Shown: positions 237 to 41,123 of the stretch, piece after piece | Layout of the letters: every line of letters starts with the position of its first letter | Position numbering within the stretch: position 1 is the stretch's first letter | NCBI GenBank assembly: GCA_040954595.2 | Contig: CM082587.2 | Span: forward strand, 4,668,093-4,732,092 | Direction: 5' to 3' | Length of the DNA: 64,000 nucleotides | Origin: Balanoglossus misakiensis | Taxonomy: Eukaryota > Animalia > Hemichordata | Translations under genes and position numbers: made by a program | The notes under the pieces: generated by a model | What the model saw: only the letters and a program-made list of their open reading frames with translations | Databases searched by the model: none | What the model was told of the DNA's origin: nothing

Positions 237-3179
237 CCCACCAATTATCCATCTTGACGTCACACCAGCAAATATCCTGCTAGATGAATTCTTCAACGCA
301 AGACTTGGAGATGTTGGTTTTTGCCATGATAAAAAAACTGTGGATAGTGATCCTTTGAAAATTCATGCCGTATTCTCTCCTGGTACACCCGGATACCAAG
401 ATCCTTCTCTGTTGGAGGATTGGTCCTTCCAGCCGACAAATGATGTGTTCAGTCTAGGTGTTGGTAAGAATCCAGAGTTTTGTTCTGACGTGTGCTTGTG
501 CGATCGGAGGTTTAATTTAGACAGACTGTCAGTACATGGTTTGAGGTTTGACACCTGTAAAATGTCTCACTTTAGCATAATTTGCATGTAATAGTGCCCA
601 TGTCCACATAGAGCTCTACGCAGTATCATTTTTAAAACCAATTACTTTTGTTTTGGTTTGTATAATGTGCTGTGTTGTGTTGTGTTGTGTTGTGTTGTGT
701 TGTGTTGTGTTGTGTTGTGTTGTGTTGTGTTGTGTTGTGCTATGTTGTGCTGTGTTTTACAATTACAGTGATGCTGCGAATGTTGACTGGAATGCCAGCA
801 CTCGTCAATGATGTACAAAAACCACCACTGTCCTTGCATGCGCATCTCCGAAAGCAAGATTGTTTCAAAGACATACAGAAGCTGTTCCAAAAAGTCATCA
901 GGGTATAGAATTAATAATGTTTATTTTGAATTTTGGCCACTTGAACATGCGCAGGGACGTCTCATCTTAAACCAATTGGGGCAAAATAGATGACATTTTT
1001 TTTCAATGTTTTAAGGTTACATAATTATTTAGGCAATGAACAGATATAATAATCATGCATTCAGTGTATCAATACATTGGAAAGATTTGTTTAATTATGC
1101 CATTTCTTTAATCTTTTTTCCCTGCAGTGTGTGTGGCTTTCTGATGAGAACAAAACAAATGCTAAAGCATTTGCAGAACTTATGTGCAAGTGCATTAAAC
1201 CAGCGTCGGAAGAGAGAATTTCAATGGCAGAACTCCACAAACAAATGAAGGTAAAGAGTTTTTGTGCTTAATAAATGGCGACAAAAATTGCATCTATGAT
1301 GAACAGATCACATGATATTATATGGAAAAATTCGATTCAGATTGCATAATGCTGCTTGTTTTAAAGTCGTACTCTTTTTTGTATTCATGGTTTGCATACA
1401 GGACCTGGTTCTTGACCACCTCTTCCATAAATCAGTGGATGGGACTGCAGAGGAACTGTGTGTCTTTTGCCATTTAAACCCAATTGGTAAGAAATATAAA
1501 AAGGTGTAATTTTTCAGCATATTCACATGATGTTTATCATCAAACAAATATATGTGATGTCGGGGATGTTTTGTCTCACGCTTGCCAGTGACCCATTGTA
1601 AGACAAAAGTCCCCAACTTGTGTAAGGTATATCTACCGGTAATCCCAGATAATTTAGGACGTGTGATTCACTTTATTCACTCTTTAATTTCAGTGCGTGA
1701 TCTCCACTTAATCAGCAAACAATGTACTGATACATGTGATGTAGCGTGTGTACAGTGTCTGATAGATTCCAAGACAAATCCGTTGGTATGCCCTGAGCAC
1801 GGGCCAGCACAGCCACCCATTGGTGAGTTACTGAGATTGGAATCATGAGTGTTTTCCAGAATCATTCTCTGATTCACTTGTGGCAGCACAAAATGTACCT
1901 TACATTAGTGCATCCAATTGCAATAATCCACAGGAAAGTTTCTTTACTCATCAATACTTAAAACGTGCACACATATGGATCTTTGTATTTCTGACAGATG
2001 TACACTTTTTCAAGGTTCATTTGTAAAATTACTAAACTACATGGTGTTTTGTATGAGGAAATGCAGGTCGATATGGCACAGGGTGGGGGGGGGGGGTACT
2101 ATTATCATACCCGGATGTATGGCCCAAGTTCATAGAGGCACATACCTGTACATTTATGGTAATTTTCGTAAGATAGGAGACACTCATTTTACATATACCG
2201 TACTACAGTGACATGGTGAAATGTAATCTTTTTTTTTGTCTGAAGGACATTCTATGAGTTTTGGTATATTCATTGGAGCAACAGGCTCAGACGATTTCTG
2301 TCTCGATGCAGAAGGATTATGTGAGGTGTTCACTGATCCCAATATTGGAGCAATAAGGTCAGTTTGTATACAAAATAAAGTCTGCATATAAAAATAATTG
2401 TTAATTCTAGCATGTAAAAATTATGATTTTTACCGATAATCGTACAATTCTGAATTCATACACAAACCGTGCCCCTATAGACTATTGTGTTTCAGAACTT
2501 TTGTGTCATTGGGGCAGTGATCCAGGAGAATTAAGATTCATTATTGTTAGCAGTTTGCCATGAAAGCTCATATACATACAAATCTACCCTTGGTGGATGT
2601 GAATAAGGCTGTTGGGCAATACACTTTTGGAAAATTCTGTGATTCTCATCTATTTCTACTTCCAATTCGAGATAAACCCAGATAAATGTAAGCCGTCACT
2701 GATGCACCAGGATTGTTTGAGGGTCATGCAGTGTACTGTCAGTCTAGATTTTAATGTTGGTAGATGTAACACAAAACAAGTACTGCATGATATAGAAGCT
2801 GTCTTCTGTGTCATTTTCCACACAGAAAGGAGAATGCTATTTTGATGACTTCAAAGTCAGAAGAAAATTTGCAGCCAACTGCAAAGAATATTTTGGAACA
2901 GTTGAAGAATATTAAGGACAAAATGACATGCGAAGAGGAATCAAGCTTGATCTTCTACTTCTCTGGGCATGGTTTCAACAAGGGTTCACGTGTACGTTGC
3001 TGTGAGGAAGACGAATTAGAATCATCACAACTACAATCAGAAATCCATAGCATGAACTTTACCCAACTTCTTCTTATTCTCGACTGTTGTTACGCTGCCA
3101 AAAATGGCCCAATGCAAGTAGGACTTGTGAGGTGTTTTGGTCCTGGCCAAGAAGTGATTTTAAAGAAAGCAATGGGGAG

Positions 3180-3222
<43 letters not shown>

Positions 3223-3669
3223 AAACTTCTTGAGGACAGTGGTATCCCAGTTTTATACAAAAAAGAAGTTGCTGACGTCATCGAGAAGTCTCTTCCAACG
3301 TTGACACAGCTGTCATCAAAGTACAGCGTAATCCAATGGTCATCCAGCATGCATGATGAGCAATCTGTAGGTTACAAAGGTGGACCCTCCGTCTTCACAA
3401 CGCATATCATCGCAGGGCTCCGTGCAGCAAAGATATGCAAGCTCGGTAGATCACCTAAAGGTTGTCAAGAATCCAAGACGTGCGAGAGATGCTCCAGATA
3501 CAGACAGAAAATGCAGAGTCAGTCATGCATATCGTTCTGTGAGCTCAGTGAGTATGTTTTTCATCATGTGAAGGAGCAGCTTTCCAGATATAAAGTATAC
3601 AATCAGACTCCTCACACTGTGGCCAAAGAAAATATTCGTGTGAACAGAAAAATAGCATATTGCTGTTAA
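237..3669 (+). CDS. 5'-truncated multi-exon gene: IRAK/Pelle-like kinase C-lobe + Cys/His zinc-finger-like segment + C14 (metacaspase-like) peptidase
   Basis: Phase-consistent GT-AG exons 237-463, 769-902, 1128-1250, 1402-1486, 1694-1822, 2246-2357, 2826-3669 (stop), about 550 aa visible. Kinase motifs: IIHLDVTPANILLD, ARLGDVG, GTPGYQDP, DVFSLGVVMLRMLTG, C..ERISM. Finger: CVFC..H..C..C..CVQC..CPEH. Protease motifs: FGIFIG, PTAKNI, FYFSGHG, LILDCCYA, QTP. Confidence 0.85.
674..738. repeat. (TTGTG)n microsatellite in an intron of gene A
   Basis: Direct pentamer array; it explains spurious ORFs 642-890 and the start of 672-908. Confidence 0.97.
2246..3669 (+). other. Peptidase C14 caspase-like domain (metacaspase/orthocaspase type) within gene A
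   Basis: Catalytic His in FYFSGHG and Cys in LILDCCYAA. The small-subunit-like part has QWSSS..EQS, SVFTTHIIAGL, ELSEYV and QTP, in the order expected for bacterial C14 and metacaspase domains. Confidence 0.85.
3181..3219 (+). repeat. Coding (GAT)13 microsatellite encoding poly-Asp
   Basis: In-frame run of 13 Asp inside the last exon of gene A. Confidence 0.95.
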
Positions 3670-6345
3670 GCTGAAGGATAGACAGATAGAGACTATCTTG
3701 TGTGTGTGTGTATGTACATGTATGTATGTATGTGCACAGCATGAAACTTATATCCTGAGTACAGCCCTTTCTTATGACTGCGGTGACTGGTTTTTAAGCC
3801 ATTTGATGGAAATCGGCTCCATGACAGGTCTAAGACCAGTGTTAAATGTGTGGTTTTAGTTTATTAAACTATATATTCTTGTCATTTTGTTGATTGAAAA
3901 AAAAATGTTGCATAATATTTTCCTGTAAACAGATTGCCTTGGTTGTACCTGTAAACCTTAATTAGTCAAAACTGGTCAATTGAAATGTCTTAATGGAAAA
4001 TGAAAAGCCTGCCAAAAAAAAGAAAGAAAAAAGAAAAAAGCCACAAATAAATACATCTGTACACATTTGATTCTAGGTACATTTAATGCTCTGTTGTTTT
4101 ATTTTTTGTACATCTAAAAGCCATGTAAGCATCATTTCAGAAAAAAAAACCAAGCAAAACAGGTTTTCATTGTTACTGAGAAAATGTTCAATAGAATTGA
4201 TTGTTACAATTTTTACATTAGTTCAGAAAGAATGTAACCGACATTACCGGTATGTACAGTAAAGGCACTATATATACAAGTACAAAAAGTCTTGTTTTCA
4301 GCTGCAGTTCACTGAACTTTTAGGAGTTAGCATAAAAATACACACTATGGTTATCTTACATGTGTCCATTAATGATATAATACAAGAGTATTTCCTTTTT
4401 GAGTTTGTTTAATCAAAATTCGTGTATACATGTTGCTAGTATACATGGGAATTAATGACAGAAAGTTTATTACATTGGTTTGGTTTTGATGGAATCCTTC
4501 AGTGAGAATTACTGCTGACTTTAAAATAGTTCTAGAAAAATTTGGTGGTTAAAAATGTTATCCTCTTTAAAACCGTTTTCGAACATCAATTTTATTGCAT
4601 GTATATTATCATAAAACATTTTGTATATGCAAAACATGTCTGCAAATATGCTAACATTCTCTTGTCTCTGAAAATGTTCTTTCCGATTCCTACTCTCCAT
4701 GTACAACCCAGTTGACACCAGAGTTAAATGCAAAATATGTTACTTTAAGTAATACATGTACTTTGATGATGTTCTGCAGCTGTTGGTTACAGAGACAACA
4801 ATTCAAAGCAGAACTCTGCAGGACAACTGGCATTCATGTATTTGTATTGAAAAATATTTCAGTTGCACAAAATCAAATTTTGGTTAATTGGCATTATTTC
4901 CTTATGTAATAGCTATGATGTTTGACACCAGACAATTAAGTAGTCACTTGTGATAACACACACAGCTCAGACTCTTAAATTTAAATTACTTCAATCCGAG
5001 CAAACAGTTTCACACAAGTGTTCTCTCACACATTCTGACGCCAAGGAAGAACTTCAGGAATGTGTGGAACAAGCACATTGGCAGACAATAGGTTTTGCAT
5101 GGTCAAGGTGAACCTGAGACATCTCTCATATTATTTTGGCCTGCATTATGATACAAAAATACTGTAAAATAGACACAAGTATTTCAGTACTTACAAAAGT
5201 TTGTTAATTAAAAGTGTACTCTGATTCTTGAAAAATTAAGGTATCTTTTATGCCCCTTAACCTCATTGAAATGATTAAAATGGACATGATTATTTCAATA
5301 CTGACATGTACAAAGTTCATTCATTTTGTTGACATAATTTAAAAAGACATGCAAGTCTTATTGTACTTATATAGTTCATTTGTTTAAAAAATATCCTGTG
5401 ATTATTCAACCAAGTAAGGCATCTCCTACATTGTCCCTTTACCCTTGTTGATAACTTCGACAGCATCAAAGAAAGGCACATGAAAGTTCCAACATGTGGG
5501 AATGCGTTGTATGCTCACTCAATAATATGTCGGTTAATTTAGTCACGTTACTGCTGCAGTGAAAGCTGATTGCAGTGGCATACTGGAGCAACAACAGTTG
5601 CAGTTTCTGTAGGGAACTTTGATGCACCATCCTTAATTGCTGCCATTACAGTAATACCGGTAATAATTATGGAAAATGATTGTTGTCTTGTTTAAATGAC
5701 TACTGGCTTGGCCCGGCACCATTCCCCTAATAGTAAACCCCTCATTATGAGGGGAGGGTTAGTTTCAAAGTCCTGCACTTGATTTTAGAAAGCTTTGATT
5801 ATCCTACAAACAATTCATGTCTAGAAATACATTGCCAATAGAAATATGATCATTGTACTTCATTTAAAGTATAAAAATCTCTTTACAGACTGGATCGTCA
5901 TCTTCAGGAGATATGATTTTCCAAAGCTTTGAGCCAAACTTAAATCTACCTGGTTATTTGCCAATTTGTTATCATCCAGTCACAATTCACAAATATCCTT
6001 AGCCTGAAAAATTTCCATCTTCTCACAGCTGCTATGTCGTTCCCAGAATGGTTCTGATTACACGAAGAAAGTCTGAGAACATGATTTTAAGAGTCCTGCT
6101 TATTTCCTTCCATTTTTGGCACAATGTCAATCATCGTTTAAAATATTCATGAAGCACACGCATATATATTTTCTAAGTTGTGACTCCTAACGCCGGATCG
6201 ACGAGGACGCGAAATCTGCATCAGGGAGGAGCATAATTTGACAACCTTCATCTTTTCACCATTTGCATACAACGTACCGGTAGTGTATTCAATAGCGGTG
6301 GGCAGTTAACTGAAGTCCCCGTGTACACCACTTTGATCCGAATCA

Positions 6346-9300
6346 TCACAGCATATCAGCAATCACTGGCATTTCCAACTCCACCAGCAAGTCGTACAGA
6401 TACCCCACAGTGGAATCGTCTTTGACCTCCCAGTAACTGAAAACTTCTGTCATTGGTAGAGACCTCTGCTGCTGTCTATAATACTGGATAGTCATATTAT
6501 CGATACCAAGCCTGGAAGCCACCATTCTCCAGTCGTGTAAACCTTCAAATGAAAAGAATCAGAAATGTTTTCATCCTTCCAGATTGCATCGCACGAATGT
6601 AAGCTAAGGAGTCACAGTGGCATTGAATGTTTTCGGAGGTTACGGTGCAGTTACTGAATTATGAGAAGGCGAAAATTTATCCTCACGTAACAGTTGCCTC
6701 TTTTGATATCATGACAATTTCCTCTCGCGAAAATAACCAATTTTACAGTACATACACATACAGACAGACTGACAACGGATGCAAGACAAAAACCGATCCC
6801 ATAAGCTAGCTATAGACTATCTCGTCTATCATAGCTAAAAATGCATCATGGCCAAAGGACCGTGATGGACACTTACCATCTGGGGATTCAACACTCAATT
6901 GTGTGCTTATTTTCTGCCTGTGTTCAAATTTCATGCTCCTTACTCTCATATTCTCAGGAAGTCTTGGACCTGAGAGAGAGAGAGGGGAGAGAGAGAGTTT
7001 TAGTATTAATTTCACTGAGCAGCATACTATGTCGACATTTTTGCCCCAATTTCTCATTCAAGCGTAATAGGAAGACGCACACATTTCAAAGTTGGTAGTG
7101 GGACAGGTTTACTTCTTATAAGTATGTATATACCTGCTTTTCCTGCTGGGAGGAACTCCCTCAGCATATTTCCAACATCCTCCCTCTTTAGTTTTTTCTC
7201 AATGACTTGGACTAATCTTCTCTCAGTACACCTGGGATCCATGTCTTGCCAGTATTCCAGAAATCTCCACACACAATACTTGTTCTGAGGAAAACGAAAA
7301 TGAAAAAATATTAACCAATGGCTACCAATCTCTGTGTTAACTCTACTAAGGAAGAAAATCAAAGTAGTGATTTTTACGAATACAAGATGGTGAATATATT
7401 ACTAGTATCTTCTTTGTTTTCAAAAAGACTTGTCAAACACTTCAAATGATATCTATACACCACCCTTTAATTCATAGTCATGCTGTTACCTCACCAATAT
7501 CTTGATCGGTCATGTGTAGCTGTTGAACCAGTTTTTGAAATTCCTCAACTGTGAAATCCTTCAACTCTCTAAAACTGTCAATCGCACCTCGTTTAAACAG
7601 ACCACCCAAGAGAGGGTTGCGGTATGTCGGTGCCAGCTGTTGGTAGGAGTGAGGTGGAGGGGGGTAAACATCGTAGGGTTGTGCAGGTGCAGCGTGAAGG
7701 CTAGGTGTTGGTTGGATACCGTAGGGTAGTTCAGAAGACATTGATTCTGGTGACATCACTCCAAAACCGTGGGGCTGGTGACCATGTGTTGGATGAGACA
7801 TGCCGATAGGTGCAGCCTGTGGTAGAGCAGCTGCAGCTGGAGACGAAACAAGTGAATAAGAGAAACCCCTCGCTAAGTGTGACATCGTAGAGATCATATC
7901 TTGGCCACCAAAGAACCAGGTCTGAATCTCCTACAATTCGTGATATAATGTTCTACACTAAAGAAAAACAAAATAAACAAACGTATCAACATACCTGAAC
8001 CATTACCAACATGCAGCCTCTGAAATTGTTGAATCAGAGCCCCTTCTTGGTTAACTACAGAAAAAATACATCAATTCATTAATGACAAAATGCGTTTAAT
8101 TTTGAGATGAAATGTCACGGTTTTGCCCATAGAAATATCATTGATAGAAAATGAGTCAGCACTTTTCTATTTCCAGCTACTTGTGCTCTACAATTACACA
8201 TTTTGACTTACTGTATCCCTTCTCTACCAAATGCTGGTGTAAACTTTCTGCTGCTTCTTTGCAACCATTTTCTTCAAGTGCACTCCTCAAACAGTCCAGG
8301 GTTGCAGATTTCTGTCTACATGCACATAATATCTGGAACTTCTTTGTATTTGCATCATATGGGTTATTGTGCATTACTGTGTCAAAGTCCACCTCTCTGA
8401 GATGAAGGTCACGGCCAACTGCCATACACTGAGCAACTGTTATTTCCTTGTAAACAAAATTGATGGCGGCGTCAACAACATCAACTGCAGAGACAAAAGT
8501 CAGAAATCAACACCACTGGCACAAAAGTCAATACCAATATATGGAGGTGTTTAAGTTTGGCGCAAATAAAAAAATTACCATGGTTTATAATGAGCAAATA
8601 GGCAATTGGTCCATTGCGGATTAAAAGCTATACATGAATTTCCATCAGTTTTGAAGAGCGTCCTCTTTAGGCGATTCCACATTTGTCTGACTCTGAATAT
8701 TAAAAATTGTTGAAAATGTAGTCGTGCACCTCTCTCTGTTGTCAATAACATATCAGAGCTTTCAGATGACCTTCTGCCGCAGTAAATATTTAATGCCAGT
8801 AAAAATACCACAGCTCTATACCTCTGCATGGATGTCTCTCTGAAGATGTTATACTCACTCTGTTGAGTGGCCGTGCTTGGGACCATACCAGTTGTTGTCA
8901 TGGCAGCCTGTGCTGTTGAGGTAAGTGGCATGCCACTTTGTTCTCTGAGTTGCCGTGCAATGTCTGGATACTGCCTATCACAAAATTCTACAAACCTAGG
9001 GAAGGCTGTGGGACCCTTTCGCAAGAGCATGTCTATAAATTTCCTCGTTTTATCAATATCTGTTAGCAAAGGATGTTTGATCTGCTGTTCTTCTTCGATG
9101 GAAAAGATCTAATGGGGAAAAATAGATAATGATAGAACTCCTAATATTAAATTTAAGTGACACTCATGTTTTGCAAAATATTTTTACAAACACTATTTCA
9201 CTGCAGATGGTCTCAGTAATGATAAATCTACCTTTGCGTGGAGTCGAATGTAGGATGTGTGAAGCAGAGACGTCTTTTTAGTAGAAAACATCAGGAGGCG

Positions 9301-9683
9301 ATCTGACGTACGTGTGCCTCCGTTGAGTGGGCGTGGCGTTTTTAGACACCAAGCGTGCGTGCGGTTCTGCAAGTTTGCCTCCGTACAGCCGATACTTTCA
9401 GCTGCCCGTTTAAAGTAACTGTAACTTGTCCAAAGGAAAACTCTCAACACTCACTTCCACTAGTGCAAGTGTTGGAATAGCTTTGCTTGTTACGGACAAC
9501 TCAATGTACATATACGTGCAAATCGTGGAATGTCACATATGTACAAGGAAGTTGTTAAAAAAAATATTTACTTGCCTCTGACATGAATTCGATCGCACAA
9601 ACGACATCCAAACGCTCGGCAATATAACGTTTTAGACCTCTGAGTATATCCCTGTGCGATTGCTGCATGCCTATTTCCGACAT
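6346..9683 (-). CDS. Death-fold adaptor: N-terminal CARD + three death domains (492 aa, 8 exons)
   Basis: Exons 9683-9576, 9108-8859, 8484-8212, 8054-7995, 7836-7490, 7284-7134, 6969-6877, 6542-6346, all phase-compatible. CARD: MQQSHRDILR..KFIDMLLRKGPTAFPRFVEFC. DD1: AVGRDLHLREVD..ATLDCLRSALEENG. DD2: FLEYW..LKREDVGNML. DD3: LSVESPDGLHDWRMVASRLGI..VFSYWE..TVGYLYDLLVEL. Confidence 0.85.
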
Positions 9684-10145
9684 AGCGTATTTTGTCGTTA
9701 GGGAAACCCCCAAGTCCAGCAACGTTTCTTCACATACGCGTACGTACGTGTCGAAAGCGAGGTTGGGAAAGCCCTAACGGGGAATTCGCAAACTGTCGTT
9801 CGTGGGTCAGCGTTAACCCAACATTTTTACAGTATCATCCGTTTCTGCCATACATGATAATTTCGATTCATAAATTGGATATTAATCGCATGTGCAATAT
9901 TTTGCTGGATTTAACCTGCAGATACAATAATTGACTGCGCTTTATAACGCGTATATTTTTTTGTACACGTACAAGATTTACGATCGAAGCCGCGTTCTGT
10001 TAATAGAGAGCTTGACTGAATTCGTGTGTGAGGGATTGCCTGCGATAACTGGTATCTAAAACGGTCGCGATGTGAACTGTGCATTTTTTACGTCGACCAG
10101 ATTTCCAGAAATGTCGCCGAACATGGTGTTTGCACTCGAAGAACA
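9684..10145. promoter_or_regulatory. Putative bidirectional promoter between gene B and raw, with clustered NF-kB/Rel-like sites
   Basis: 462-bp head-to-head gap, visibly CpG-rich compared with both gene bodies. GGGAAACCCC 9701-9710 fits GGGRNWYYCC; GGGAAAGCCC 9765-9774 and GGGAATTCGC 9780-9789 are near matches. Confidence 0.55.
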
Positions 10146-21215: not shown

Positions 21216-22418
21216 TTAAACAATCTTAATAGTCACATGTCTTGTGGTCTTTGTTCTGATTTTCTGTCCAATTGTTGTTGAAATTCCTGGTAAAATAGTT
21301 TCAAAGAATTGCCTTGGTATTTGTCGTTTTTTCGGTAGTTAAAAAACAGCATAATGGACTAGCTGCCTGTGCTGGGTATCTATTCACTGCGATCGTATAA
21401 AAACAAAAGTCGGGATATCTTACCAGTCTCTTGCTCGTAGAGGGCGCCGACTTCTTCCAAGGACAATTCCCGGTAGAATATTTGAAGATCGCTCATCCCG
21501 GCGTTGCCACGTTTCGAGGTGTCCATCATGGCGCTGTTAGAGCCACCTATAATCAAGACTGTGGAGGGGGAAGGAAATCCCAAAGGTAGAATTAACACGA
21601 TAAGGAATGCAATGAATTTAAAGTCCGGACTAAAAAATAGCCAAAAGTTTTAGTTTCTGGGAAAGTACTTACTTGTATCTGTGAAAGTGGTAGACGGGTA
21701 TGTGTCTGTCTCTTCTATATGCGTTTGTGGCAATCCATCGACGTACATGTTCCCCGTGCTGGGTGCCCTGAATGTCGCCACAAAATGAAACCACGTGTTT
21801 TGTGGGAACCCGTCGATGGCGAACATGCGCCTGTACAAAGCTGTGCTGTTCTTGGGAACCTGCGCGGCCCACACCAGCAAGGGGGTGGCGCCGTCCACTG
21901 TCCAAATGGCAAACCCCCTCCCGTTCATGGTCTGTCCGCCAGACGTCAAGTGGTAACGAATGGTCGGGTTCTGGCCCATGTCGATGTTCATCCACACGGC
22001 CACGGTGGCACCCTCGCCGCACAGGGCGGCGTCTGCCAAGCACTCGCCGTCGAAGTCCGGGAAACTGACGATATTGCCCGTGTCGTAGTGTGTGGCGCAC
22101 GTGTGCACGGCCAGTTTCGGCACCGGCGCCGGGGTGAGTGGTATGTCGGCCCAAGTGGGGAGAAAGACGAAGATGTCACCGCCTCTACCCTGCATCACTT
22201 CGTATACCGTTGGAGCCGGTGATGCCGGTGACGCGCACACGTTTCCAAGGCAATCAGCGGGTTCTGGGTCAGATGCTGCGCATTTGCCAGAGAGTTCCCA
22301 GTGGTACGTTGGTCTTAAATCTGTTGGTTGAACAAAATGGGATCTTATAATACGTGCAGCCGCAGTATATGTCCAACAAACGACCAGGGTAGATTAATGA
22401 AGCCTGTATTTTGTGTTC

Positions 22419-22502
<84 letters not shown>

Positions 22503-25500
22503 TAGTCACCGAATATTGCAAATTAGGGATGGATTTCAAATCGTCCCAAAATATATACGTGTATCTTTACTACATTAGAAGGCCCATGCCATTATATACG
22601 GACACAAGTGGACACGTACCGTAGCATGAAGGAGCTACATCACTCCAGATCCCGTTGGTACACGTTAGATTACTCGCCCCATACAAGTAATAGTTCACGA
22701 CACAGGAGTAGGACAACGATTCTCCGTGGTGAGTGCCTCCTGTGCGGCTGCCGTCGTCGGGTGTGCCAGGGTCACTGCAGTCCGCTGGAATTATACAGTA
22801 ACAGAATGTGAGATAGATAGACAGACATACATGCGCACAGAGAGACAGACAGAGAGACAGACAGATACATACATACATAACATGTTTCCTGGGCGCGCTA
22901 GCTTAAAACCAGAACATTTCCTACTGGTAACTGAAATTGTTTTTATTTATTTGGACCTTGTCTTTCCAGATAGTATTTTTGTATATCCATTCTTTAGGGA
23001 CGATATGATCATCCTAAATTGTTCTCTAGATTCTGGAGGAGGCATACAAGCCGTCCTCAAACATTTTGCGATAATTTTTTTTTCTCATATACCGTGAAAG
23101 GAACTCATTATAATGGAGCATTCAGTGGCACGGTTATGACTTGTATTTTGTTAACGTCTTTAATATATTATTTGTCACAGAATCCTTCTGCAAGTGAAAG
23201 AATAGTTAACATTTGAGTTGAAGACTGGGAAATGAAAGCTCGCTGCTGATTGGTTCAAGTCACCTGGACCACCTGAACATGGAAATTGCGTCTTGTCATC
23301 CGGGCATTTTCGTAAAAGACGGCCATGCTGCTGGTACCGTGCATGTAGCCTGCGTTTAGTTGCGGATGCGATGAACTCAATTCAACAACAGAGTTTCTCT
23401 GATGTTTATTTTGCTGCAAAGAGGCGGTAAGTAAAATAACAGGAGTATACAGTTACTCAATTTTCGACCGGACTCGTATGTCTTATTGTGGCGAGTTACG
23501 GACTAAAAAGTCAGACTTCGACGTTTCTCCGACTACCACTGAGATGAAACAGCGTGCTGGCTATCGTCAGACAACGCCCATTGTTTTGTTTACTTCCGCC
23601 TCGTACTTTGAAAGCGACCCATTTTCATTGGCATTGAGCGGATTGGTTTATCACTTGTGTTTTTGTTAACTTCTTGTACGGTGATCACGGTAGAAATTTT
23701 GTTTCATGTTGACTGATAGACATTCACTTCGTTTGCTTGTTCTGCAGATCCAAAGGCCAGATGTACTGATAATGATGTCCAGCAACCAAGCTGACCAGTT
23801 GTTCCTTCCCGCCATGCATCTGTGACTGGTGCTCGTACGTTCAACGCGGATGCTATGATGTTACAAGCATGATGTCAGAGTAAGCGGTATCAGCCAAGTT
23901 TTTTTTGGCAATTTTTAAGATCTTTCAACGATTCTGACTGGTGCCGGTAGCCAGTTCAGCGAACCGATTTTGCACAAATCTGAAGAATGCAACAATACGG
24001 ATGCCATATGTGGATGTCATTACAGTTTTGAAACCAACATGACTACATGCTCGGTGCATGGGTCATTTTTGTTACGGCACCAACAAGTTCCTCGGCTTTG
24101 AATGCTTCGAAAGGTGCTTGTTGTTGTAAGTGTGTGTGTGTGCATGTGTGTGTCACGGTAAGTTGTACGGTATATTTGGGCCATGCAACTGTAGTCTACA
24201 ATGAGGTGAGCGTTTGTATGTTCCATGGCTGAATGAAGACCAGTGGATGGTATGAAGTTTCATAACAAGTAAGTTATATAGACATAAATAAAATCCCCGG
24301 TGCGGGTGGGTCCCATCCCTCAGACAGTCGGTTAATACTTAATACAGGTTTTTTGAGCTTTGTCATCGTTCGTCTTTATTCAATAAAAAATATTAAAAAC
24401 ATCCACGTACTGCTAAAACTGGGAGTGGATTATTCCCGTACCGAACATCTTCGCGCGTGCGTATATAGATAGTACAAGTTCTTTGAGATTTATAATCTTT
24501 CGTCATTATTCAATAAAAAAATGTTAAAAACATACACGCACTCATAATACTGGGAGTGGTTTATTTCCGTACCGATCATCTTCGCGCGTGCGTATTTAAT
24601 ACAAGTTCTTTGAGATTTGTGAGCTTTCGTCATTTTTCAATAAAAATTTATCTAAAAAATGCATGCACTGATAAAAATGGGAGTGGTTTATTTCCGTACC
24701 GATCATTTTCCCTAACTCCATGTACGATGATAAAATTGAAGGTATTGTCATTCCTTTAATTTGTTATATCTCTACATGTATGTACAGAGTTTGACATAAG
24801 CCAGGAAGTATTAGTGAGGATGGGTATATTTTAGGTGTTTAATTGCTTGAGAAATGACTTGTATTTTGATCATGAGTCACTGGATATTCATGTCAAAATC
24901 TTTCAATACAATACGTTGTCCACTTACCAAAACATAACGGTGGTACATTGCTCCACACGCCATCGCTGCAAGTGACCATACTATCTCCAACCATTGTGAA
25001 CTCTGAATTACACACATAATTCATGACGGTTCCGTGTGTCAGTGTGCCAAAGCGTTGTCCGTTAACTGGCGTCCCGGGGTCCGTACAGTCAGCTGGAATG
25101 ATAAGACAAGCACATTTCCTTCAGCTAGACAGATTTTCAGAAAATGATATATAATTCTCCAAGCATTTCAAATATATGACATATTAAAACAATGAAGAAT
25201 GCGTAGTGTTCACCGTCTTGTTTCATAAAAATCGATCTTTTATATTTTCTCCATATAATTAACATAGAGGTGACGGCCGCCATTTTGAATTTCAAATTTG
25301 AGACCCCTTAATTTTCATTCGCAATCTTTAAGAAATTATCTAAAGTTACTGGAGTAAAATATGACAAAAAGTTCCATCATAGCCTAACATCATTTGCGGG
25401 CACCCGTGCGCCCTTACCGTAGCATGTTCCCGGACTGTCGCTCCACGTCCCGTCGCTGCAGGTAGACGTGCTATTTCCGACCAAGGTGTAGCCTCCATCA

Positions 25501-28500
25501 CAGCTGAAAACAACTCCGTTGCCATGGAAACTGCTTCCCGCGACATTACCGTTGGCCGGAGACGCCGGCATTGTGCAGTCGGCTGAGATGTAAAACAAAG
25601 GACATGGTAATTTTACCCCATTCATTATAAATAATGAACCTAAAGTTTAGACACCAAAACTCATCTGGTCCATCTATCATGACTCCTAATCTATCAAGAT
25701 ATTATCTAGCATGGGTCGAAATCAGTCAAACTAAAATTGACACTCCAGGGCTCAAAACACTTCTGCTACGCCGAAATACTAGTACATGTTAATCTCTAAT
25801 TTATGACAAAATAATATTGTGGTGATTTTTGATAAATACCAGTCCTCGCTGGTTAATCTCACTGCAAACTAAATGTTAATGATGTTGTAAAGATCGTGCA
25901 AGTAATAATTAGTTGACAAAGTTTACCGTAACAGGTTGGCGCCGTGCCAATCCAGCCTCCGTCTTGACATACAATGAACTGGTTGCCAGTCAGTGAATAG
26001 CCGACATTGCAAATGAACGTCACGATATCTCCATGGCCTGAAGTGCCGGTAGCGACGCCGTTCGCCGGCGATGAAGCCGGCACGCAGTTTTCTGAGAGGG
26101 GGAGAGAGAAAGAGAGGGAGAGAAAAAGAGAGACAAAAGAGAGAGAAATCAGTCGACGGGGCTTTTCACGAAATCACGGTTTCCGTTTATTCTCGCGGAA
26201 CGCGGACACGCCACCTACTCACGCCTCGTAGCGTTCTTCGAGGAGAAACATTTTCATCATTCCTGGAATTGTGCATGAGTGCTGTTTACCCGTGGCCATT
26301 GTAACGTCACGAAATGTCTTTGATGCAAGGTTTGATTTGTGCAGAAGCGTGTGTACACCAAATCGCAGTGACCTGCATGCTTGCATGCTAGTACTGTCAA
26401 TGGGATCTGAAGTACACTATACAGAATGAAAGAAAGTAAACCGAATATCTTGGAAAAGGAACGTGTTGTTGTTCTTTTGTGATACATATTCCAAGAAAGG
26501 GAGTTATCGATTTCTGGTAGTATTTCAGAATAGACAGTAATCAGAGAACCGGCGTTCTGTGTTTGAATTCATATATTCATTTACTGTATCTTGTCTGCTT
26601 CACATTGTGCGTTCACGTGTCATTTGTAGTAACCCTGGCTTGTCTATTTACACTGTAAAAGGAAGGCGTGGGCACAAAGTATACATGTTTTTCATTTTTT
26701 TTTCTTTTTACATTGTGAGCATTTTTAGAAAGACCAGACTAAAAGACCGATAGTAAGGTTTAAACGGAAGGAAGGTCTGACTAAGTACGTCAGCACCGCG
26801 TTTGCTACTACGCAGACAGAAATCTAATATTCGAGATTTTGTAGACCAACAGAGTGGCGATAACATCCGGGATATATACTTACGATGGCATGATGGGATG
26901 GGTTGGCTCCACACGCCGGCTGTGCACACAGTCGCGGCAGACCCTACCAGGGTGTGGCCAAGATTGCAGGTGTATTGGAGAGTAGCGCCATCAGTGAATA
27001 AACCGCTCTGGGTGCCATTCGGCAAAGGACCCGGATCAGAGCAATCGGAGGCTGCTGCAATAAAAGTAGAAAAAGATCAAAATTATGTAAAGTCACCAAA
27101 CACTTGTATCTATCAAAAAATAAACACACACCATCAGACATCAAGTACTCATTTATTTACCTGGTGGAGTGCCTGTCGTACAGGCGCCCTCGTCGTCACT
27201 GTTCGGACAGTCTCTAAACCCGTCGCACAACCTGACTGCTTGCAAGCAGGTGCCGTCGTCGCAAACGAAGTCGCCACCGGCGCACGCGCAGCCCATCTCG
27301 TCATCTCGTCCGGGGCAGTCGGCGAAGTAGTCGCAGCGCAGTGACGCTGGTATGCAGCTGTTGTCGTTGCATTGGTACTCTCCAACCGAACAATCTGAAA
27401 GACAGCAAAGTATGTTAGTATACTGCGCATGACATGTGTGTGCGCGGTTTTACTTTAGGGACAGTGTAGTAGACTCTCAAATCTGGTCAAAACCTGTACA
27501 ATGGTAATTTTCAGCGCCTACAACAAGCACAGCCAGATACGCACGTCTCTGTGGACCGCATACACATTACGTTTCCGCGCTGGTAATATTGCGAACATTT
27601 TTCACTCTTGCATTATCAGAAATTGAAATACGCATTACGATGATAAAAAGCTTCACGTGGTCCACAGACGAGTAATAAATTCTAGGTCTTGAAAAGTAAA
27701 ATAATAATTCAGCGGCCTTCGCATTGTTTGTGGTGACGACTGCAGATAAACAGGTCTATACGAATGCAATTTAGACTTCGCACGGTTCTTCATTCATCAT
27801 GTCTGAATCCCGTTTTCCATTATCCAAGCCTGATGCATGTTTTACAAATTGGTAGTGAAACGTTTGTAGCAAGGTGTCTTATATCAAAGACCACCGTTTC
27901 GTGCAGGCTATTATATAAAGTTTAGACTTTTGATTTATGTGTTGCCATGGTCACTGTTTTCTCGAACCATAAACCGGATGATCACCCGATTACAAAACAC
28001 CGCGATTGCAATGCAGGATTTTTTTACGTGATGGAAGTTTCTCGTAAGATCGTGAGAATTTTAAATATAACTGGCTTATTACGTGACGGAAACTTAAGTT
28101 TAATGACTTTTAAACGTGCAATAACTGAATAGCATTGCTTCAATAGACATTCATCTAAGCTTGCATTGATTTTACGATTTGCAGGGTTAAGAGACCATTT
28201 TATGGAGGCTGAACTCGCGCGTGTTTAGGTGATCTTTAATCTTAATTTACCAGTGGTAGCTTTATCGTTTCCGACGGTTTGATAATCTTCAAAGAAACAC
28301 ACGCTATAGTTAGCGTAATCATTTAATCTTTAGGATATTCTGTATTACTGCATTAAACATAGAAGGCACCTTTGCTTAAATTTGACTTCAAGCACTTATT
28401 AGTAAGTTCCCGTTTGCGGTTATTGCGGCGAGCTTTGGCATCGAAAATAATTCCGCTATATAGTTTTGTCTTCAATTCTACTACATAAAACTGATTTCAT

Positions 28501-31500
28501 TTAGAACCTGAAAATTAGCATTGGGAAAGAGACATTTCAAGTTTTTAGAGATAAATACTGCGTAGGTTGTTAAATTTCGATACATAAAGTGGTTGCTAAG
28601 CCTCTGACGTAATTTATACGTGTTTTTTTTTCGCGTAATAATACGAAGTCTGATTTCTGTTGTGATAATGACGTCGTTGGGTCATTGGCCTGTTTGAGAT
28701 TCAGCAAGGCACATGTGTGAGGTGGTCCGATATGTACATTTGACCGTGGTTTGCTATAAGCTGTAGGCTTCAGCGAGCCCTGGAATGTTTACAGATTGGT
28801 TTTCAATGAGCAGGTGCTGATTACACACACGGTTGGCAGTGATCGATTGGACAGCGTGCCCGCGTATATACTAGTATGAGGCCTTAGCTATAGATATGCA
28901 AGGAACGCTCGGTATCAACGACGAGGCATATTCTTTAATGGGGAAATCAACTCGAAATACTTGCAATAAAATCAAATGGAGGAAATCGTACGGCCGGACC
29001 ACAGCGGGTTGTTAGCATCCGCCGATCGATTTTGCTTACATTCGGCTGTCGCGATGGAAGGTGTGAAGCTAGCACATTGCTTGGCTATAAAAGGATCCAC
29101 CAGAGATCATTTCAATTAAAATTGGCCAGGTGCATCAATTACGGCGTACCTATATCTACACGGCTTTCGTTACGTTTATCTTCTGAGCATGCGTAGTCTG
29201 ATACACCGTAGATGTACATGTATTACACCTTATTGCTTGTGTTCCTTGCCCGGTGATAGGGTGATAGTGAAACGTTTATAGATTAGATGCAGATAACACG
29301 AATATTTCTAATATCTTTCAATTATTGCTGCATGCTATAATAAATGATCTCGCTCATCCCTTACTTCGAAAAAAGTGATTATACGTACATTTGCAGTGAT
29401 TCATGTGTTTTTCTTAATATATATTTTTAGTCGTACAATATCCGCACAGTCCTATACCGAAAAGTCGATGAATGTACTTTCGTTCGCGACAATATTCTAT
29501 TATTCAAAAATGAGGTCATGTACATACCATAAATTTTATTACAGCAGCGGTCGTTTTGTAAATACCTAGTTATTAACTTCTACCGACCTTTTCCATTTAT
29601 TCGTAGAGATTACTCGATTTAATTCCCTCTTCCATGAAGTCTTTCATGCAAATTTACGATGCCCGAATTTCGATGAAATGACTTGGGGCCAGTCGAAGAT
29701 AGCAACTTTTCCCCCTAGGATGAACGTTTCCTCTTTTCGCAATAGAGAAAGGACGATTATATCCGAAATGTCTTAACCGTTGCATGTTTAAAAGATTAAT
29801 GTTCCTGTTCTAAACGCCTTGAAATTTAAACGCTAGTGAATAAATCCACGGTCTACGGGAAAACAAACATGGAAATGAATTCCACTCGTGTTCCCGAGTT
29901 TTCCAATCCATGGAGCTCTTAAGCCCGGGAAAGCCCCATAAATCCACCGCTCAATCGGATACAGATCGTTTTAGCTGAGCATGCTCCGGCGGAGAAACGT
30001 GGCGATCATGCCGACGTTGCACAACATCAGTCGGATGCCCTACGGCGCTACCCTTTCAGACCGAACCATAAGGCGTCCGAATGAGTTTATAAGCCTCTTT
30101 ACGGAAGTATACGTCATAGAGAAGAATTAGTTTTCCTGGCCTACTCTCGTAATTTTAATGACACTAATGCATTTACCCTATGACGTTTGCCTTGTAGTCA
30201 GGGTTCTCTATTCATGATCTCACACGACTGTATTCCGGTCGAAACGTTTGTAAAAGGACACTGACTTGACGAGGAAAGCGTGCCTTTTTATTCTCGATGC
30301 GTACATGTGTACATTGTAATTACCCGAGCTTCCTTGTTTTCGCACTGATTTTATACTTCGCGTAAACCGATCAATGTTCATACATCATATTTGATATTTG
30401 ACCGGATTTCGTTCAAAGGTGAGCGGGAATGCGTAAAATAAAGAAAATGTATTTTTGTGATCGCGATGATACAGAGATTTCATGTTAAAAGCGTAGCAGT
30501 AAACAGGATGTGACGATTTTGAAAGTCAGTCAGGAGAAGTTTGGATTTTTGTCACGTAGAGGTGAGCTATCAATATGGCGGCCTGACATTTATACCGCGA
30601 CAGCAAATTCAGAGAAGCAGGCACGGTTACGTGTATACGTCTAGCCACACTCAGCCTTGAGTGCCATACAATGACACCGATTTGCACGCCAGAAAAAAAG
30701 AGGCCGGTGATCGCATGCCCGCATTATTGGTAATCTGGCCCAGGGACCATCAACATGAAATTTACTGCCCGTCGAACAAGCCCAAGTGCACGTGATATAA
30801 CGATTAATCTTACGGCACAGAGGAGTTGCTATTGAAAAACCCCGACTGGATTGAGCTCTCCAAAGGTCTTTCACTCACTAAAATCGTTCTTGGTAATTCA
30901 AATTATCACTGCACGCGAGACAGCAATATTACGAAATGCAAAGTAAGTCGTAAAACCGTCACAAGAAATCATATGCAGTTTAGAATTGTGGATCACTATG
31001 CTTGTGCATGCTCGGTGCGTTCTGCCATTATCGTTAACTAAGACAACTGATACGAAAAGACAAAATCTTAGGCAATCTGCCGGCTTTATTGACATTCACA
31101 GCAATCACCACCGAACATTACTAAGATCCGACTGTATCAAACGACTCGGGTATTTTCGCTACAGGTGGCAACACGCCAAGCAATTTGCAGCATTCCTGGG
31201 ACTCAACAACTGTCAAATTCCATCACATTGTCAATTATACCTGCTGACAATTGATCTTTCAGGGTGTAATCTGAAAGCAATTTACCATACGACTGGGGTA
31301 TCGCATGCTGTGTAAAACGGAGACGATGAAACTACTCTACAAACGCTAGATATGTTGATGAACATCGTTTTCAGACGATCCTTACTTCTAACGTAGATTA
31401 AGAAAAAACATTTGCAACAGGAATGCATGCATGTCTTTGTGGGAAGACTGAAAGAACTTCGATCGCATTCATTCGCGGCTGTCTTTATTTTCTTCGAGCA

Positions 31501-34500
31501 CATCGTCAGAAATCTGTTTGCATCAAACCCGACCTTTCCTCGTTGTACGCGCAACAAACCTGTCGTCATGGTTGTGAAATATGAAATGTTTTGGCGGGTG
31601 ACGAAAATCGTGGAAAAACTCCATCGGAAATTGATCAACCTCCACAATAGGTGAAGAAAACCTCTTTCAGATAAATCGCTGCGGGGCACGCGTTATTCAG
31701 TTGCCAATATTCGCTGTGTGAACAAATCCTACGTGTGCCATCTGGTACCTGTCACTTAATACATATAAGTGTTGCAATTCTTCGCAGGGAGATTCGTCAG
31801 ATTTCAGAATTTAGCAACGTCCCCATGTCTTGCAGGCAAACAGACCCGTGCTAATAATCATACACCAACTCAAGGCTAAGGCGATTTGAAAAAAAACCTC
31901 GCACATGAGTTTATATCATGATTAATTAGATTCTACTTTACTCTGCCTCGTTTTTTCTTTACTTTGAGAATATCGATGAAATGTAAATGTTAGATTAAGG
32001 CTAATACTGAAAAATGAGTGTGTACTGAACTTTCGTTAAATCGGAGATTATCTCTTTGCCTGCATAAATCAAACAACCTGCCCCAAGCTCATCAGAAAAG
32101 ATATCATCCCGGCTTCACTTAATATAATGCTGGATTAAAATCGAAATTAATTTTAACATTTTTTCTGAGCTTGCTAATAGAACGTTTTCGGTATTTTTTG
32201 CATGGATTTTAATTTGTTTTCTCTTTCGCGTATTTTCCGTTACGCTGCTTCCACGTATGTTTTTATCAATCAAATACAATTCAATTCGTTATTTATTTTC
32301 AAGCTTGGATTGGTGCATACCAAGCGCCTATTTATCGAGCTATTTTGGCCCTTTCAATTACCAGATTATAGGGTTTCAATGACACTTCTGCTGTGATTTG
32401 CTCGCCGTTCAAATTTCTAGGTCACACATACCTTTACCAAAAGCCAGTGTTTCCACATATGAAACATGCTCGAAACGAGGAATTTGTAATTCCAATCTTT
32501 TGACAGTTTTCGAACCACTGATTCGCTTATGAGATACTGACATAAAAACCAACCTTCCAATATGCGATATGTCGTAAATGATCAGGTATCGTTGCTTAAT
32601 TAAATAGCGAAATGTCGGTGTTTTGATACCTTCGCACGTAAAACAGTGGGCCTGTTCTCATATTCATTCTCAAAGAAATACAACAAAAACTTCGACCTTT
32701 ATTGATTTTTGAAAGTTATCCTTAGCAACCGTTCTTCTCAGTGAGCATCCTTCAGCATTGCATGACGTCATGTGAGTCACATGTGCGACAAATCACACTT
32801 TTTTTCAACATCGAATTCTGAGATGAAGCATTGTGCATTTTGAAACTCACGTTACTCAAAGTTCATAAATTGTTAGATACGCGACGCACGCGTGTAATAA
32901 GTTATGTCTGCCTGTCAACTGTGACGATGCTATCCGAAAGATTCATGCAAGTGAGTATAGTTAATTGACATCGTCAATTCAAAGATATTAAATTGTAGCA
33001 GAGATCCATGCATTATTTAAATTAATATACGGGTAACGAAGCGAGCTTCACGAATGCGTCACGAATAAAAGCCTAGTAATTTTAACATACGTACTTCACT
33101 TTTTTAAAAGCCAGAGTATCACAAAAAACAAAAAAACTATTTTGCTGAGCCCCAACATCTGTGCCTTTAATACGGACTGTTTACAAAGAACTGATTTGCG
33201 GCCCTGATGGGCCAATAATTGCGACAAATGTCGGTGTGCCAAATGGCTGTTCATTCTAATTGATTGCGGGATCAAGGCACGAGATGATTAAACAGAGAAT
33301 TGGAACAGTTGAATCACCAGAGAGAGATTGCGCACCACGTTGATGGAATGTCACCCGAAAATACAACCTCAATAACGACTACGAATGCGCCGTAATAACG
33401 GTGATAAAAATAACCGAAAGCCATTACAGCTCATAAAGGACACCACTGTGCCGTGCTAAGATGGGCAAAAAGCAATATCTAATAGATGTTAGATTTTATT
33501 AACAGTTCGGGCATGAAATTCAACCCGATACAGGCGTGGCTGTTGATGACGGTTCATTGAAACGTTCAAGTTGGCCCATTACGATTTCAATTGGTCAATT
33601 ATCGCGCCAGATAGACAAGAACATTAAAAAAGTCTGTCACTTCTGCCAATAGGAGCGCTCAACCGACATGGACGGTGTTGGCTCGGTATAGTCTGACCGC
33701 AGTCTGTCTCCATCTCTGACTGGATACATATCCTTAATTTAAATCCAAAACAAATCCGCAGTAAAGGCAACACGTAACAACAATTTCCCTGATCTTCTTG
33801 CATATAAATTCCGGTGGGAGCCTGATCCCCTTTCGCGCCGATTTGAGTGCCCACACACCCTTTATTTCTCTTTTACTACAATTTCAATTTTACTGACTAC
33901 GATTTTATGGCTGACGTTTTTGCATTACCCCGATAAGAAAACAGGTCAGGAGATAAATCAGAAATCCAGGAAAGTGTCTACACTTTTTTTCCGGATTTTA
34001 TACATGAATAGACTAAATGGAGAAAACCATATCTTTTAAATCTTAATGCAAGTCTAATTTGAATCTGAAATCACCGTTCCAGAGAATCGACGGTGTTTAT
34101 AATTTACGTTCATCTATTATTGAGTTTGCCAGTGTTTGTGTCTCTGTTACGAAAAATATTTTTGAACATTTGATTTTAGTCCGTGCGTGCGCGTGACAGT
34201 GAAATGAAAATTAAGATCATCTCTACGTGAAGTTCATAACGCGTATTTCATTTCAACAAAAAGCCTTTTTGATTGTCTGATTGTCATGGCGTTCCATCTG
34301 GTATGTCATGAATATTTCACACTACAAGAAAAGTTGTGTCCCATGATCGTGAAACTCCGTGATGTACACCCAAGAAAAATTGTTTGCAATAAACGGATGG
34401 ACCAGCGACCATCCATCATTATGGGCAGAAAGTGTTAACAGCCGTCCTGCCGCTAAAACACAGGCAAAGTGCTCGGGAACGTGTTAACACATCCCGTCGG

Positions 34501-40500: not shown

Positions 40501-41123
40501 TCCGCCTACATTAATTTAGCAGTTGCGCAAATCATGCTAAACAATATCGTAAATAGTTAACCTATACTGCACCCAATCTGGCTTCCAATTTCAAACGTAT
40601 ATTTTTGCAATTTCGCCTTGACTTAGAACGGCATTGAATTTAGTGGTTCGATTGACAGGCGCCTAAAGAGGTTTCTTTAACCGAGTTCCGCTTGGTAGTC
40701 CGAACGGGATGTTGATAGAATAGGACGCAATTGGTAAAAAATGCTATTTAGTCACACAATATTCAGTTTTGAAGAATGACTTCACCGCTGCAACGACGAT
40801 TTTCCCCTTTTCTGCAGTGAAAATTATCGTCGACCTGAAGTGACCCATCGTCAGAGTACAGTCAACTAACATTACCTTACATGAAATAAACCCTGTTACT
40901 TACTGGTGGATGACGTTGCTGTTTGGCAAATTTTCCCGGTGAAACCAGGTGAACACAGACAAATATAGCCTTCCGGGCCACAGTCTGGCGCGCAAAGGCC
41001 CCCGTTGAGACATGGATTGACGCCGGGGCAGTTACAACTTGCCAATATCGTCTGCCACAATGTCACTGAGTGAATGAACAAACTGAGTGTTTCTCGATAT
41101 CGATGCGAGACCGCTGTTTTCAT
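21216..41123 (-). CDS. Secreted mosaic protein: signal peptide-EGF-LDLa x2-sushi/CCP x5-LamG/pentraxin-like domain
   Basis: Exons 41123-40904 (signal + [22 protein letters not shown]), 27394-27161 (2 LDLa), CCP exons ~27054-26884, 26091-25927, 25582-25418, 25092-24928, 22784-22620 (all phase 1, mostly 165 nt), 22320-21673 and 21558-21424 (LamG-like: [33 protein letters not shown]). The link across the 13.5-kb intron and the terminal exon (21286-21216) are inferred. Confidence 0.7.
22419..22501. repeat. (GAT)n microsatellite, intronic
   Basis: About 27 trinucleotide units; source of the poly-His pseudo-ORF. Confidence 0.97.
24340..24710. repeat. Three diverged tandem copies of a ~130-bp unit
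   Basis: Recurring blocks TACAAGTTCTTTGAG..TTCGTC..TTCAATAAAAA..TGGGAGTGG.TTATT.CCGTACCGA.CAT starting near 24340, 24472 and 24598. Confidence 0.9.
25272..25304 (+). repeat. Dispersed repeat fragment (possible MITE-like element end)
   Basis: GCCATTTTGAATTTCAAATTTGAGAC recurs as its reverse complement at ~57360-57385. Confidence 0.55.

Follow-up and report, generated by a model that had tools for sequence, protein, structure and literature searches.

What does it take to accept that an animal gene encodes a kinase, a zinc finger and a metacaspase-type protease on a single chain? An initial annotation proposed such a gene at positions 237-3669 of a 64,000-nucleotide stretch of the genome of the acorn worm Balanoglossus misakiensis (GenBank assembly GCA_040954595.2, contig CM082587.2, positions 4,668,093 to 4,732,092 of the forward strand), which as a whole we call the window. 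We find that the gene is real, conserved and apparently undescribed. Its parts are of known kinds; what is new is their combination and the lineage of the protease.

A kinase-finger-protease gene

The gene model consists of seven exons on the + strand (237-3669), which join into 550 amino acids with the terminal stop codon as the only stop. All seven exons have AG acceptors and all six donors are GT, and the alternative frames of the joined exons contain 46 and 30 stops. Pfam profiles match at both ends above their curated cut-offs: Pkinase in the open reading frame (ORF) of the first exon (E-value 4.4e-8), and Peptidase_C14 (PF00656) in that of the last exon (E-value 5e-9, 36.6 bits against a cut-off of 21.4). 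The last exon also holds both catalytic motifs intact, FYFSGHG (His codon at 2968) and LILDCCYA (Cys codon at 3088). The evidence that carries the model is that residues 1-549 of the joined protein fall within one local alignment to acorn-worm RefSeq proteins: Ptychodera flava XP_070532870.1 (P0001, 50.7%), a second Ptychodera protein (P0004, 47.7%), and the two isoforms of Glandiceps talaboti LOC144435020 (P0002/P0003, 48.3%). Because this single alignment crosses all six junctions, the splice model is not the product of chance, and the seven phase-compatible exons can be taken as they were first drawn. We are close to certain that the fusion of kinase, finger and protease is real.

The start of the window falls within an intron of this gene, which is thus incomplete at its 5′ end; the kinase N-lobe and any adaptor domains are located upstream of the window. 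The first exon in the window (237..463) covers kinase subdomains VIb-IX, by Pfam and alignment, with the catalytic loop HLDVTPAN (Asp codon at 256, Thr-for-Lys codon at 262) and DVG replacing DFG. The kinase C-lobe continues in the second exon (769..902; 43-47% to relatives by tblastn) and ends with subdomain XI in the third (1128..1250), as placed by frame and by alignment to relatives. A linker and, from 1459, the first CxxC of a RING-like finger make up the fourth exon (1402..1486), and the remainder of the finger, to 1800, lies in the fifth (1694..1822; 63-68% to relatives by tblastn). The C14 domain opens in the sixth exon (2246..2357) with strand 1 and helix 1, including the conserved helix-1 Asp. 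The seventh (2826..3669) carries the catalytic core around the two codons given above, an acidic linker with a run of 14 Asp (3181-3222), strand 5 (3328), a Cys3-His insert (Cys at 3436, CxxC at 3481-3492, His at 3565) and a QxP (3604), and it ends with strand 6 and the stop codon.

Contigs of the sole listed sample cover the gene, some pieces being identical to the window. They are not independent support, because the assembly may have been made from this sample. The same sample (runs X1-X3) contains, over 237-3675, a second and more divergent version of the gene, which is either the other allele or a paralogue. The exonic indels listed for this version keep the frame (+3 at 2282-2289, -6 at 3298, -3 at 3582, and +1/-1 at 3592/3597, among 12 of the 28 indel rows), its intron at 1829-2239 is shorter, and among the differences listed 11 of the 17 touched codons change the residue and none creates a stop.

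The same chain in five animal phyla

Searching longer proteins with the last exon resulted in three matches among 1175 candidates, namely P0001, P0002 and P0003. A phmmer search with the same exon against 1.84 billion representatives reported 44 matches, 41 of them new. The 20 new matches that were looked up include proteins of Saccoglossus, Ptychodera, Glandiceps, Owenia (two), Lingula (two), Gigantopelta and Cyanophora paradoxa. When longer proteins were searched with a profile, Branchiostoma belcheri came out on top, above ten bacterial-type proteins. In all, a kinase and a C14 domain stand on one chain in seven species from five phyla: hemichordates (Ptychodera P0001 and P0004, Glandiceps P0002/P0003, Saccoglossus P0014/P0048), amphioxus (B. 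belcheri P0049), an annelid (Owenia P0006 and P0032), a brachiopod (Lingula P0009 and P0037) and a mollusc (Gigantopelta P0022). They also stand on one chain in an 871-amino-acid ENA protein (P0033). The proposal of a single chain with kinase, Cys/His finger and non-caspase C14 protease is borne out both by the joined frame and by relatives that have the same order of domains.

What precedes the kinase varies. The Glandiceps protein is laid out as two death effector domains (DEDs), a low-complexity region, a complete kinase, a Cys-rich segment and the C14 domain. Pfam identifies two N-terminal DEDs in P0002 and in Lingula P0009, and CARD plus DED in Gigantopelta P0022; Owenia P0006 begins with a DED and a weak TIR match (E-value 0.057), and Owenia P0032 with ankyrin repeats. 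The suggestion of an N-terminal Death domain is not borne out by the full-length relatives, which start with DED, CARD plus DED, or ankyrin. The C14 domain of both Owenia proteins was found by phmmer and by the family profile and missed by Pfam. In every complete family member the finger leads directly into strand 1.

Other variations affect the rest of the chain. Saccoglossus P0014 has two tandem RING-like fingers between kinase and protease. P0006, P0009, P0015, P0032, P0033 and many short matches have, after the protease, a conserved C-terminal domain that bears no Pfam name; the clade of the window protein stops at strand 6, without that extension.

What kind of protease is it?

Column counts were taken from a family alignment of 39 rows and compared with 17 bacterial-type rows. 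The catalytic Cys is present in 39/39 family rows and the His in 36/39, the other three being gaps. An Asp two residues before the Cys occurs in all 39 rows, and the helix-1 Asp in all 21 rows that have a letter there; these are two acidic S1 positions, and both are retained. The hallmark of caspases is a Gln two before the catalytic Cys (QACxG), and QACxG is found at no catalytic site of the 39 family rows. At the two columns that we take to be equivalent to the two Arg of the caspase S1 pocket, the window copy has Ser and Gly, and Arg is outside the six commonest letters at either column. The residue after the Cys is Tyr or Phe in 30/39 family rows and Arg in 2/39, as opposed to the DxCR motif of MALT1 (PMC5756287; papers are cited here by PubMed Central, PMC, number, each for the passages concerned). 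Like MALT1, the family is animal and death-fold-led, and has a six-strand C14 domain and an Asp two before the Cys. On the other hand, Pfam detects no Ig domain among the fused family members, the window copy terminates at strand 6, and the family carries kinase and RING-like domains. With caspases it shares the six-stranded core of the structural model, a feature common to paracaspases and legumain. By motif and architecture, the protease is neither a canonical caspase nor MALT1.

Is it then a metacaspase? We used an AlphaFold model of the relative P0001, built with 43 sequences (predicted local distance difference test score, pLDDT, 77; predicted template modelling score, pTM, 0.75). The model has six core strands, and it shows no extra strands 7 and 8 between strands 4 and 5, where the acidic linker (380-431) has low confidence. 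When the model is compared with 48,161 chains using VIA-align, metacaspase 4 comes out on top (Z 22.8, root-mean-square deviation 2.6, 214 residues aligned). Below it stand legumain (20.7), metacaspase 9 (20.7), a plant asparaginyl ligase (20.1), Yca1 (19.3), GPI transamidase (19.3), caspase 4jj7 (19.0), GSU0716 (18.6), caspase-9 (18.3), MALT1 (18.0) and T. brucei MCA2 (14.6). Foldseek also ranks metacaspases first for the protease model. A sequence search of the PDB with the last exon reports nothing significant, and one with the family profile gives weak matches (E-values 0.07-0.5) to GPI transamidase and metacaspases. The protease, as modelled, resembles metacaspases most, by a modest margin.

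The label of metacaspase-type protease stands in part. With metacaspases (MEROPS C14B; Arabidopsis MC4 6w8r and MC9 8a53, yeast Yca1 4f6p, T. brucei MCA2 4af8) the family shares SGH, D-x-C, the helix-1 Asp, the highest structural scores and, in some members, a long linker after the catalytic Cys. It differs from them in having a six-strand core in the model, not an eight-stranded sheet (PMC4357240); an aromatic side chain where the S1 Cys (TbMC2 C92, AtMC9 C29; PMC5756287) would be expected; a Cys3-His insert; fusion to kinase, finger and death-fold domains; and animal hosts. The linker after the catalytic Cys has 82 amino acids, 20 of them acidic, in the window copy and 65-121 in several relatives, and it has just 18-26 in 16 of 38 family rows. 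The insert follows helix 4 and contains a Cys (37/39 rows), the two Cys of a CxxC (36 and 34/39) and a later His (35/39). Its pattern is found in 34/39 family rows versus 1/17 bacterial-type rows, and it is likely a structural zinc site.

What would such a protease cut? A preference for Arg/Lys is favoured because the two acidic S1 positions are retained, and according to the reviews Arg/Lys is preferred by every non-caspase C14 enzyme that has been characterised (PMC4357240, PMC5756287). We therefore lean towards a basic P1 residue, as a prediction from sequence.

The kinase and the finger

The best PDB sequence matches of P0002 are plant receptor kinases (E-values 1e-29 to 1e-24) and IRAK4 (1e-23), then RIPK2 (5e-20), and Foldseek ranks IRAK1 high for the kinase. 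At the position that we take to be the gatekeeper, which for the B. misakiensis copy lies outside the window, 7/9 relatives have Tyr. A Tyr gatekeeper is a trait of the IRAK family (PMC3498205), and the non-RD state, present in 7/10 relatives, has been tied to innate immunity (PMC8463890). The kinase can thus keep its initial name of IRAK/Pelle-like. The family differs from IRAK/Pelle kinases in having DED, CARD, ankyrin or none (by Pfam, in the relatives) instead of a Death domain, and in adding a C-terminal finger and protease.

The catalytic-loop Lys is kept in all 10 relatives in which the loop was found, out of 12 checked. In the window copy it is Thr, and the sample-contig rows listed show no difference at that codon. 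Losing this Lys usually impairs phosphotransfer, and for that reason the window copy may be a weak kinase or a pseudo-kinase.

The finger has the spacing C-x2-C-x15-C-x3-C-x3-C-x2-C-x10-C-x2-H in the window and in the three closest relatives, which fits a RING whose fourth ligand is Cys and whose eighth is His. An eight-ligand pattern is found in 12 of the 14 proteins checked. Of the 10 rows in an Atlas structure search, 9 are RING (zf-C3HC4_3) models; 8-9 of these have template modelling (TM) scores of 0.50-0.59, and all are below the naming bar. An Atlas feature search with the finger gave no usable match. The original term, zinc finger, was correct in that a conserved Cys/His segment is present, but it was generic: by spacing and structure search the finger is predicted to be RING-like, and it may have ubiquitin ligase activity.

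Where the protease came from

We built a tree of 54 rows (38 family, 16 bacterial-type), seeded from family queries and midpoint-rooted; it is a tree without caspases, paracaspases or true metacaspases, and it leaves out the near-duplicates P0003, P0046, P0047 and P0048, as well as P0037 and P0044 (<150 amino acids). Family and bacterial-type rows split at 98/94 support, and the window protein is with P0001 at 99/89. Protein P0018 of the glaucophyte alga Cyanophora paradoxa and two further proteins group inside the family at 98/96, Cyanophora being flagged for composition. The proteins P0018, P0016 and P0028 have the Cys3-His insert and no kinase.

Bacterial C14 proteins (orthocaspases, GSU0716 3bij, EACC1-associated caspases NF047832) have in common with the family the motifs, the fold (Z 18.6) and the fusion to signalling domains. 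They differ in that identity is about 25-35%, they fall on the other side of the tree, the insert pattern is nearly missing from their rows, and the family has introns. Plasmid matches reach 23-34% over part of the domain (among 10 of 13 records), a search of prokaryote genomes reported no relative of the gene, and a viral fold search found giant-virus C14 proteins at 10-15% identity and no donor. Among 25 hand-picked short proteins, 19 have neither strand 1 nor helix 1, and look like ORFs called from one exon. In about five of the short proteins the match starts at the column of the last exon junction of the gene model, which hints that this intron is old and shared.

An old origin is favoured over recent bacterial transfer, because members occur in five animal phyla as well as in a glaucophyte. 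The best explanation is that the protease is its own old eukaryotic C14 lineage, joined to the kinase and the finger before the deuterostome/spiralian split. The initial annotation had offered ancient retention or an intron-acquiring transfer. Retention from a unicellular ancestor and early transfer both remain; recent bacterial transfer is not supported by the sequence comparisons.

How the protein may work

Our overall reading, which we hold with somewhat more confidence than doubt, is that of a one-chain switch for immunity or cell death, which would be activated by proximity and cut after Arg/Lys. The N-terminal DED, CARD, TIR-like or ankyrin part would draw the protein to a platform formed by a receptor or an adaptor. 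Clustering would then join the kinase and protease domains and switch the protease on, as in caspase-8 and MALT1. Recruitment and clustering are suggested by the swappable death-fold adaptors in front of a fixed kinase-finger-protease core, and activation by clustering fits the six-strand core of the P0001 model. Caspases and paracaspases are described as activated by dimerisation (PMC4357240, PMC5756287), and initiator caspases and MALT1 by clustering (PMC4357240, PMC11121540). The finger would ubiquitylate the protein itself or its partners, tuning or ending the signal. The kinase of the window copy is probably a scaffold more than an enzyme, because of its Lys-to-Thr change. Beyond the domain anatomy, we infer every step of this mechanism.

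Caspase-8/10 and the FADD-RIPK1-cIAP-caspase-8 complex combine tandem DEDs and a C14 protease with a kinase and a RING in a single signalling unit. The family has tandem DEDs, kinase, RING-like finger and C14 protease as well, but all on one chain, with a protease without QACxG and a kinase nearer to IRAK/Pelle than to RIPK2. Kinase-prodomain proteins of Macrostomum and Eisenia also have an invertebrate kinase ahead of a caspase-fold domain; compared by their description in PMC11463336, they are species-specific P20+P10 caspases inside caspase trees. Tentatively, and with rather more doubt than conviction, we propose that the family may be a third animal C14 lineage beside caspases and MALT1, with a zinc-binding insert and a glaucophyte member. 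Since the bilaterian ancestor it would have been a signalosome for death and immunity on one chain, with a DED/CARD adaptor, an IRAK-like kinase, a RING ligase and an Arg/Lys protease, doing the work that FADD, RIPK1, cIAP and caspase-8 share in vertebrates.

Several observations speak against a one-chain switch of this kind. The Z margin of metacaspase over caspase is small (22.8 vs. 19.0), and legumain ties with metacaspase 9. At columns that we take to be equivalent to the metacaspase S1 pocket, Phe or Tyr stands three before the helix-1 Asp in 19/21 rows and Cys in 2/21 (bacterial-type rows have Cys in 4/17), and Gly or Ala occupies 23/39 rows where 10/17 bacterial-type rows have Glu or Asp. 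The specificity may not be for Arg/Lys, because this pocket differs from those of known Arg-cutters. The DFG position reads DVG, DPG, DPS, DHG or DAG across the family, and with DFG so altered kinase activity is assured in no member. Pfam gives the finger no RING family, and the Atlas RING rows fall short of the naming bar. Three relatives that look full-length (P0004, P0048, P0049) have no Pfam adaptor domain, and the fusion in the relatives is based mostly on gene models.

Could the protease instead act as a metacaspase-style monomer, activated by calcium or by self-cleavage in the acidic linker, with the kinase and the finger regulating or localising the enzyme and not acting through clustering? 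The top structural matches are type II metacaspases, and the long acidic linker of the window copy and several relatives occupies the position that the linker has in type II enzymes (PMC4357240). But the P0001 model has no strands 7 and 8 at the linker, the linker is short in 16 of 38 rows and hence no conserved regulatory element, and the death-fold N-termini indicate recruitment; we consider the monomer unlikely, if worth keeping in mind. Less likely again is a protein that is mainly a scaffold or ubiquitin ligase, whose kinase-like and caspase-like parts bind, as in IRAK2/3 and cFLIP, with little proteolysis. Such a protein would suit the conserved RING-like finger, the unusual DFG, the lost catalytic-loop Lys of the window copy and the bulky residue near the S1 pocket, and an intact dyad alone is no proof of activity (PMC5756287). 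Still, the dyad hardly varies across the five phyla, nor do the two acidic S1 positions, and pseudo-enzymes rarely keep such residues.

The two remaining alternatives question the chain itself and its age. Many family matches are protease-only fragments, as would be expected if splice prediction had falsely joined two neighbouring genes. We find false joining very improbable: the six junctions show no stop or frame break and are spanned by one alignment, finger and strand 1 are contiguous in all complete members, and most protease-only matches look like single-exon ORF calls. Scarcely credible, too, is a recent bacterial gene that moved into an acorn-worm lineage and was fused there. The nearest clusters in the Atlas, which consists of clusters of at least 50 members, are all bacterial C14 proteins, and 40 of 43 aligned proteins match a bacterial EACC1-type caspase model, which ranks best for P0001, far under its cut-off. 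Yet the same fusion occurs in five phyla, the bacterial-type rows split off at high support, Cyanophora falls inside the family, and the plasmid matches are low and partial.

Neighbouring features of the window

A multi-exon gene on the - strand (6346-9684) lies tail-to-tail with the kinase-finger-C14 gene, 2.7 kb apart. It has CARD (Pfam E-value 2.6e-9) and Death (1.9e-7 and 9.5e-4) domains and a third similar stretch seen by eye. It looks like an adaptor with several death-fold domains, similar to CRADD, and is a candidate partner of the kinase-finger-C14 protein. One of its introns contains a high-copy interspersed repeat (6670-6760), with contig depth >10,000. Further along, exons with Laminin G, Sushi and EGF domains (21650-41264, - strand) belong to an extracellular multidomain protein. 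A 738-amino-acid open frame (44651-46867, + strand) lies in an A-skewed region and has no Pfam match. Exons with CUB, LDL-receptor class A and rhodopsin-type seven-transmembrane domains (48007-54799, - strand) probably form one receptor gene, presumably GRL101-like.

Published accounts and significance

We found no description of the kinase-finger-C14 architecture in the full text of PMC and bioRxiv, a corpus that mostly leaves out subscription papers and excludes supplements; within it, the initial statement that no characterised animal protein is known to have this architecture agrees with ours. Reviews do state that metacaspases are absent from animals (PMC4357240, PMC5756287), where they were displaced by paracaspases (PMC3417536). 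The classical absence has a published exception, the bdelloid rotifers, with a horizontally acquired metacaspase and a C14 expansion (PMC11258130). Related reports describe fusions of kinases or caspases in bacterial and TRADD-N proteins, in another layout in the passages concerned (PMC8195603), paracaspase types (PMC5978004) and bivalve p10-less caspases (PMC7836458); the word "caspase" is absent from the main text of PMC4729200.

An intron-bearing, multi-copy, metacaspase-like family in five phyla would revise the account of metacaspase absence from animals. In its layout, a fixed kinase-finger-protease core with swappable adaptors, the family corresponds to a hub of immune signalling. The family is a natural instance of one-chain coupling of kinase to protease, and it opens the way to testing a caspase-independent proteolytic pathway in invertebrates.

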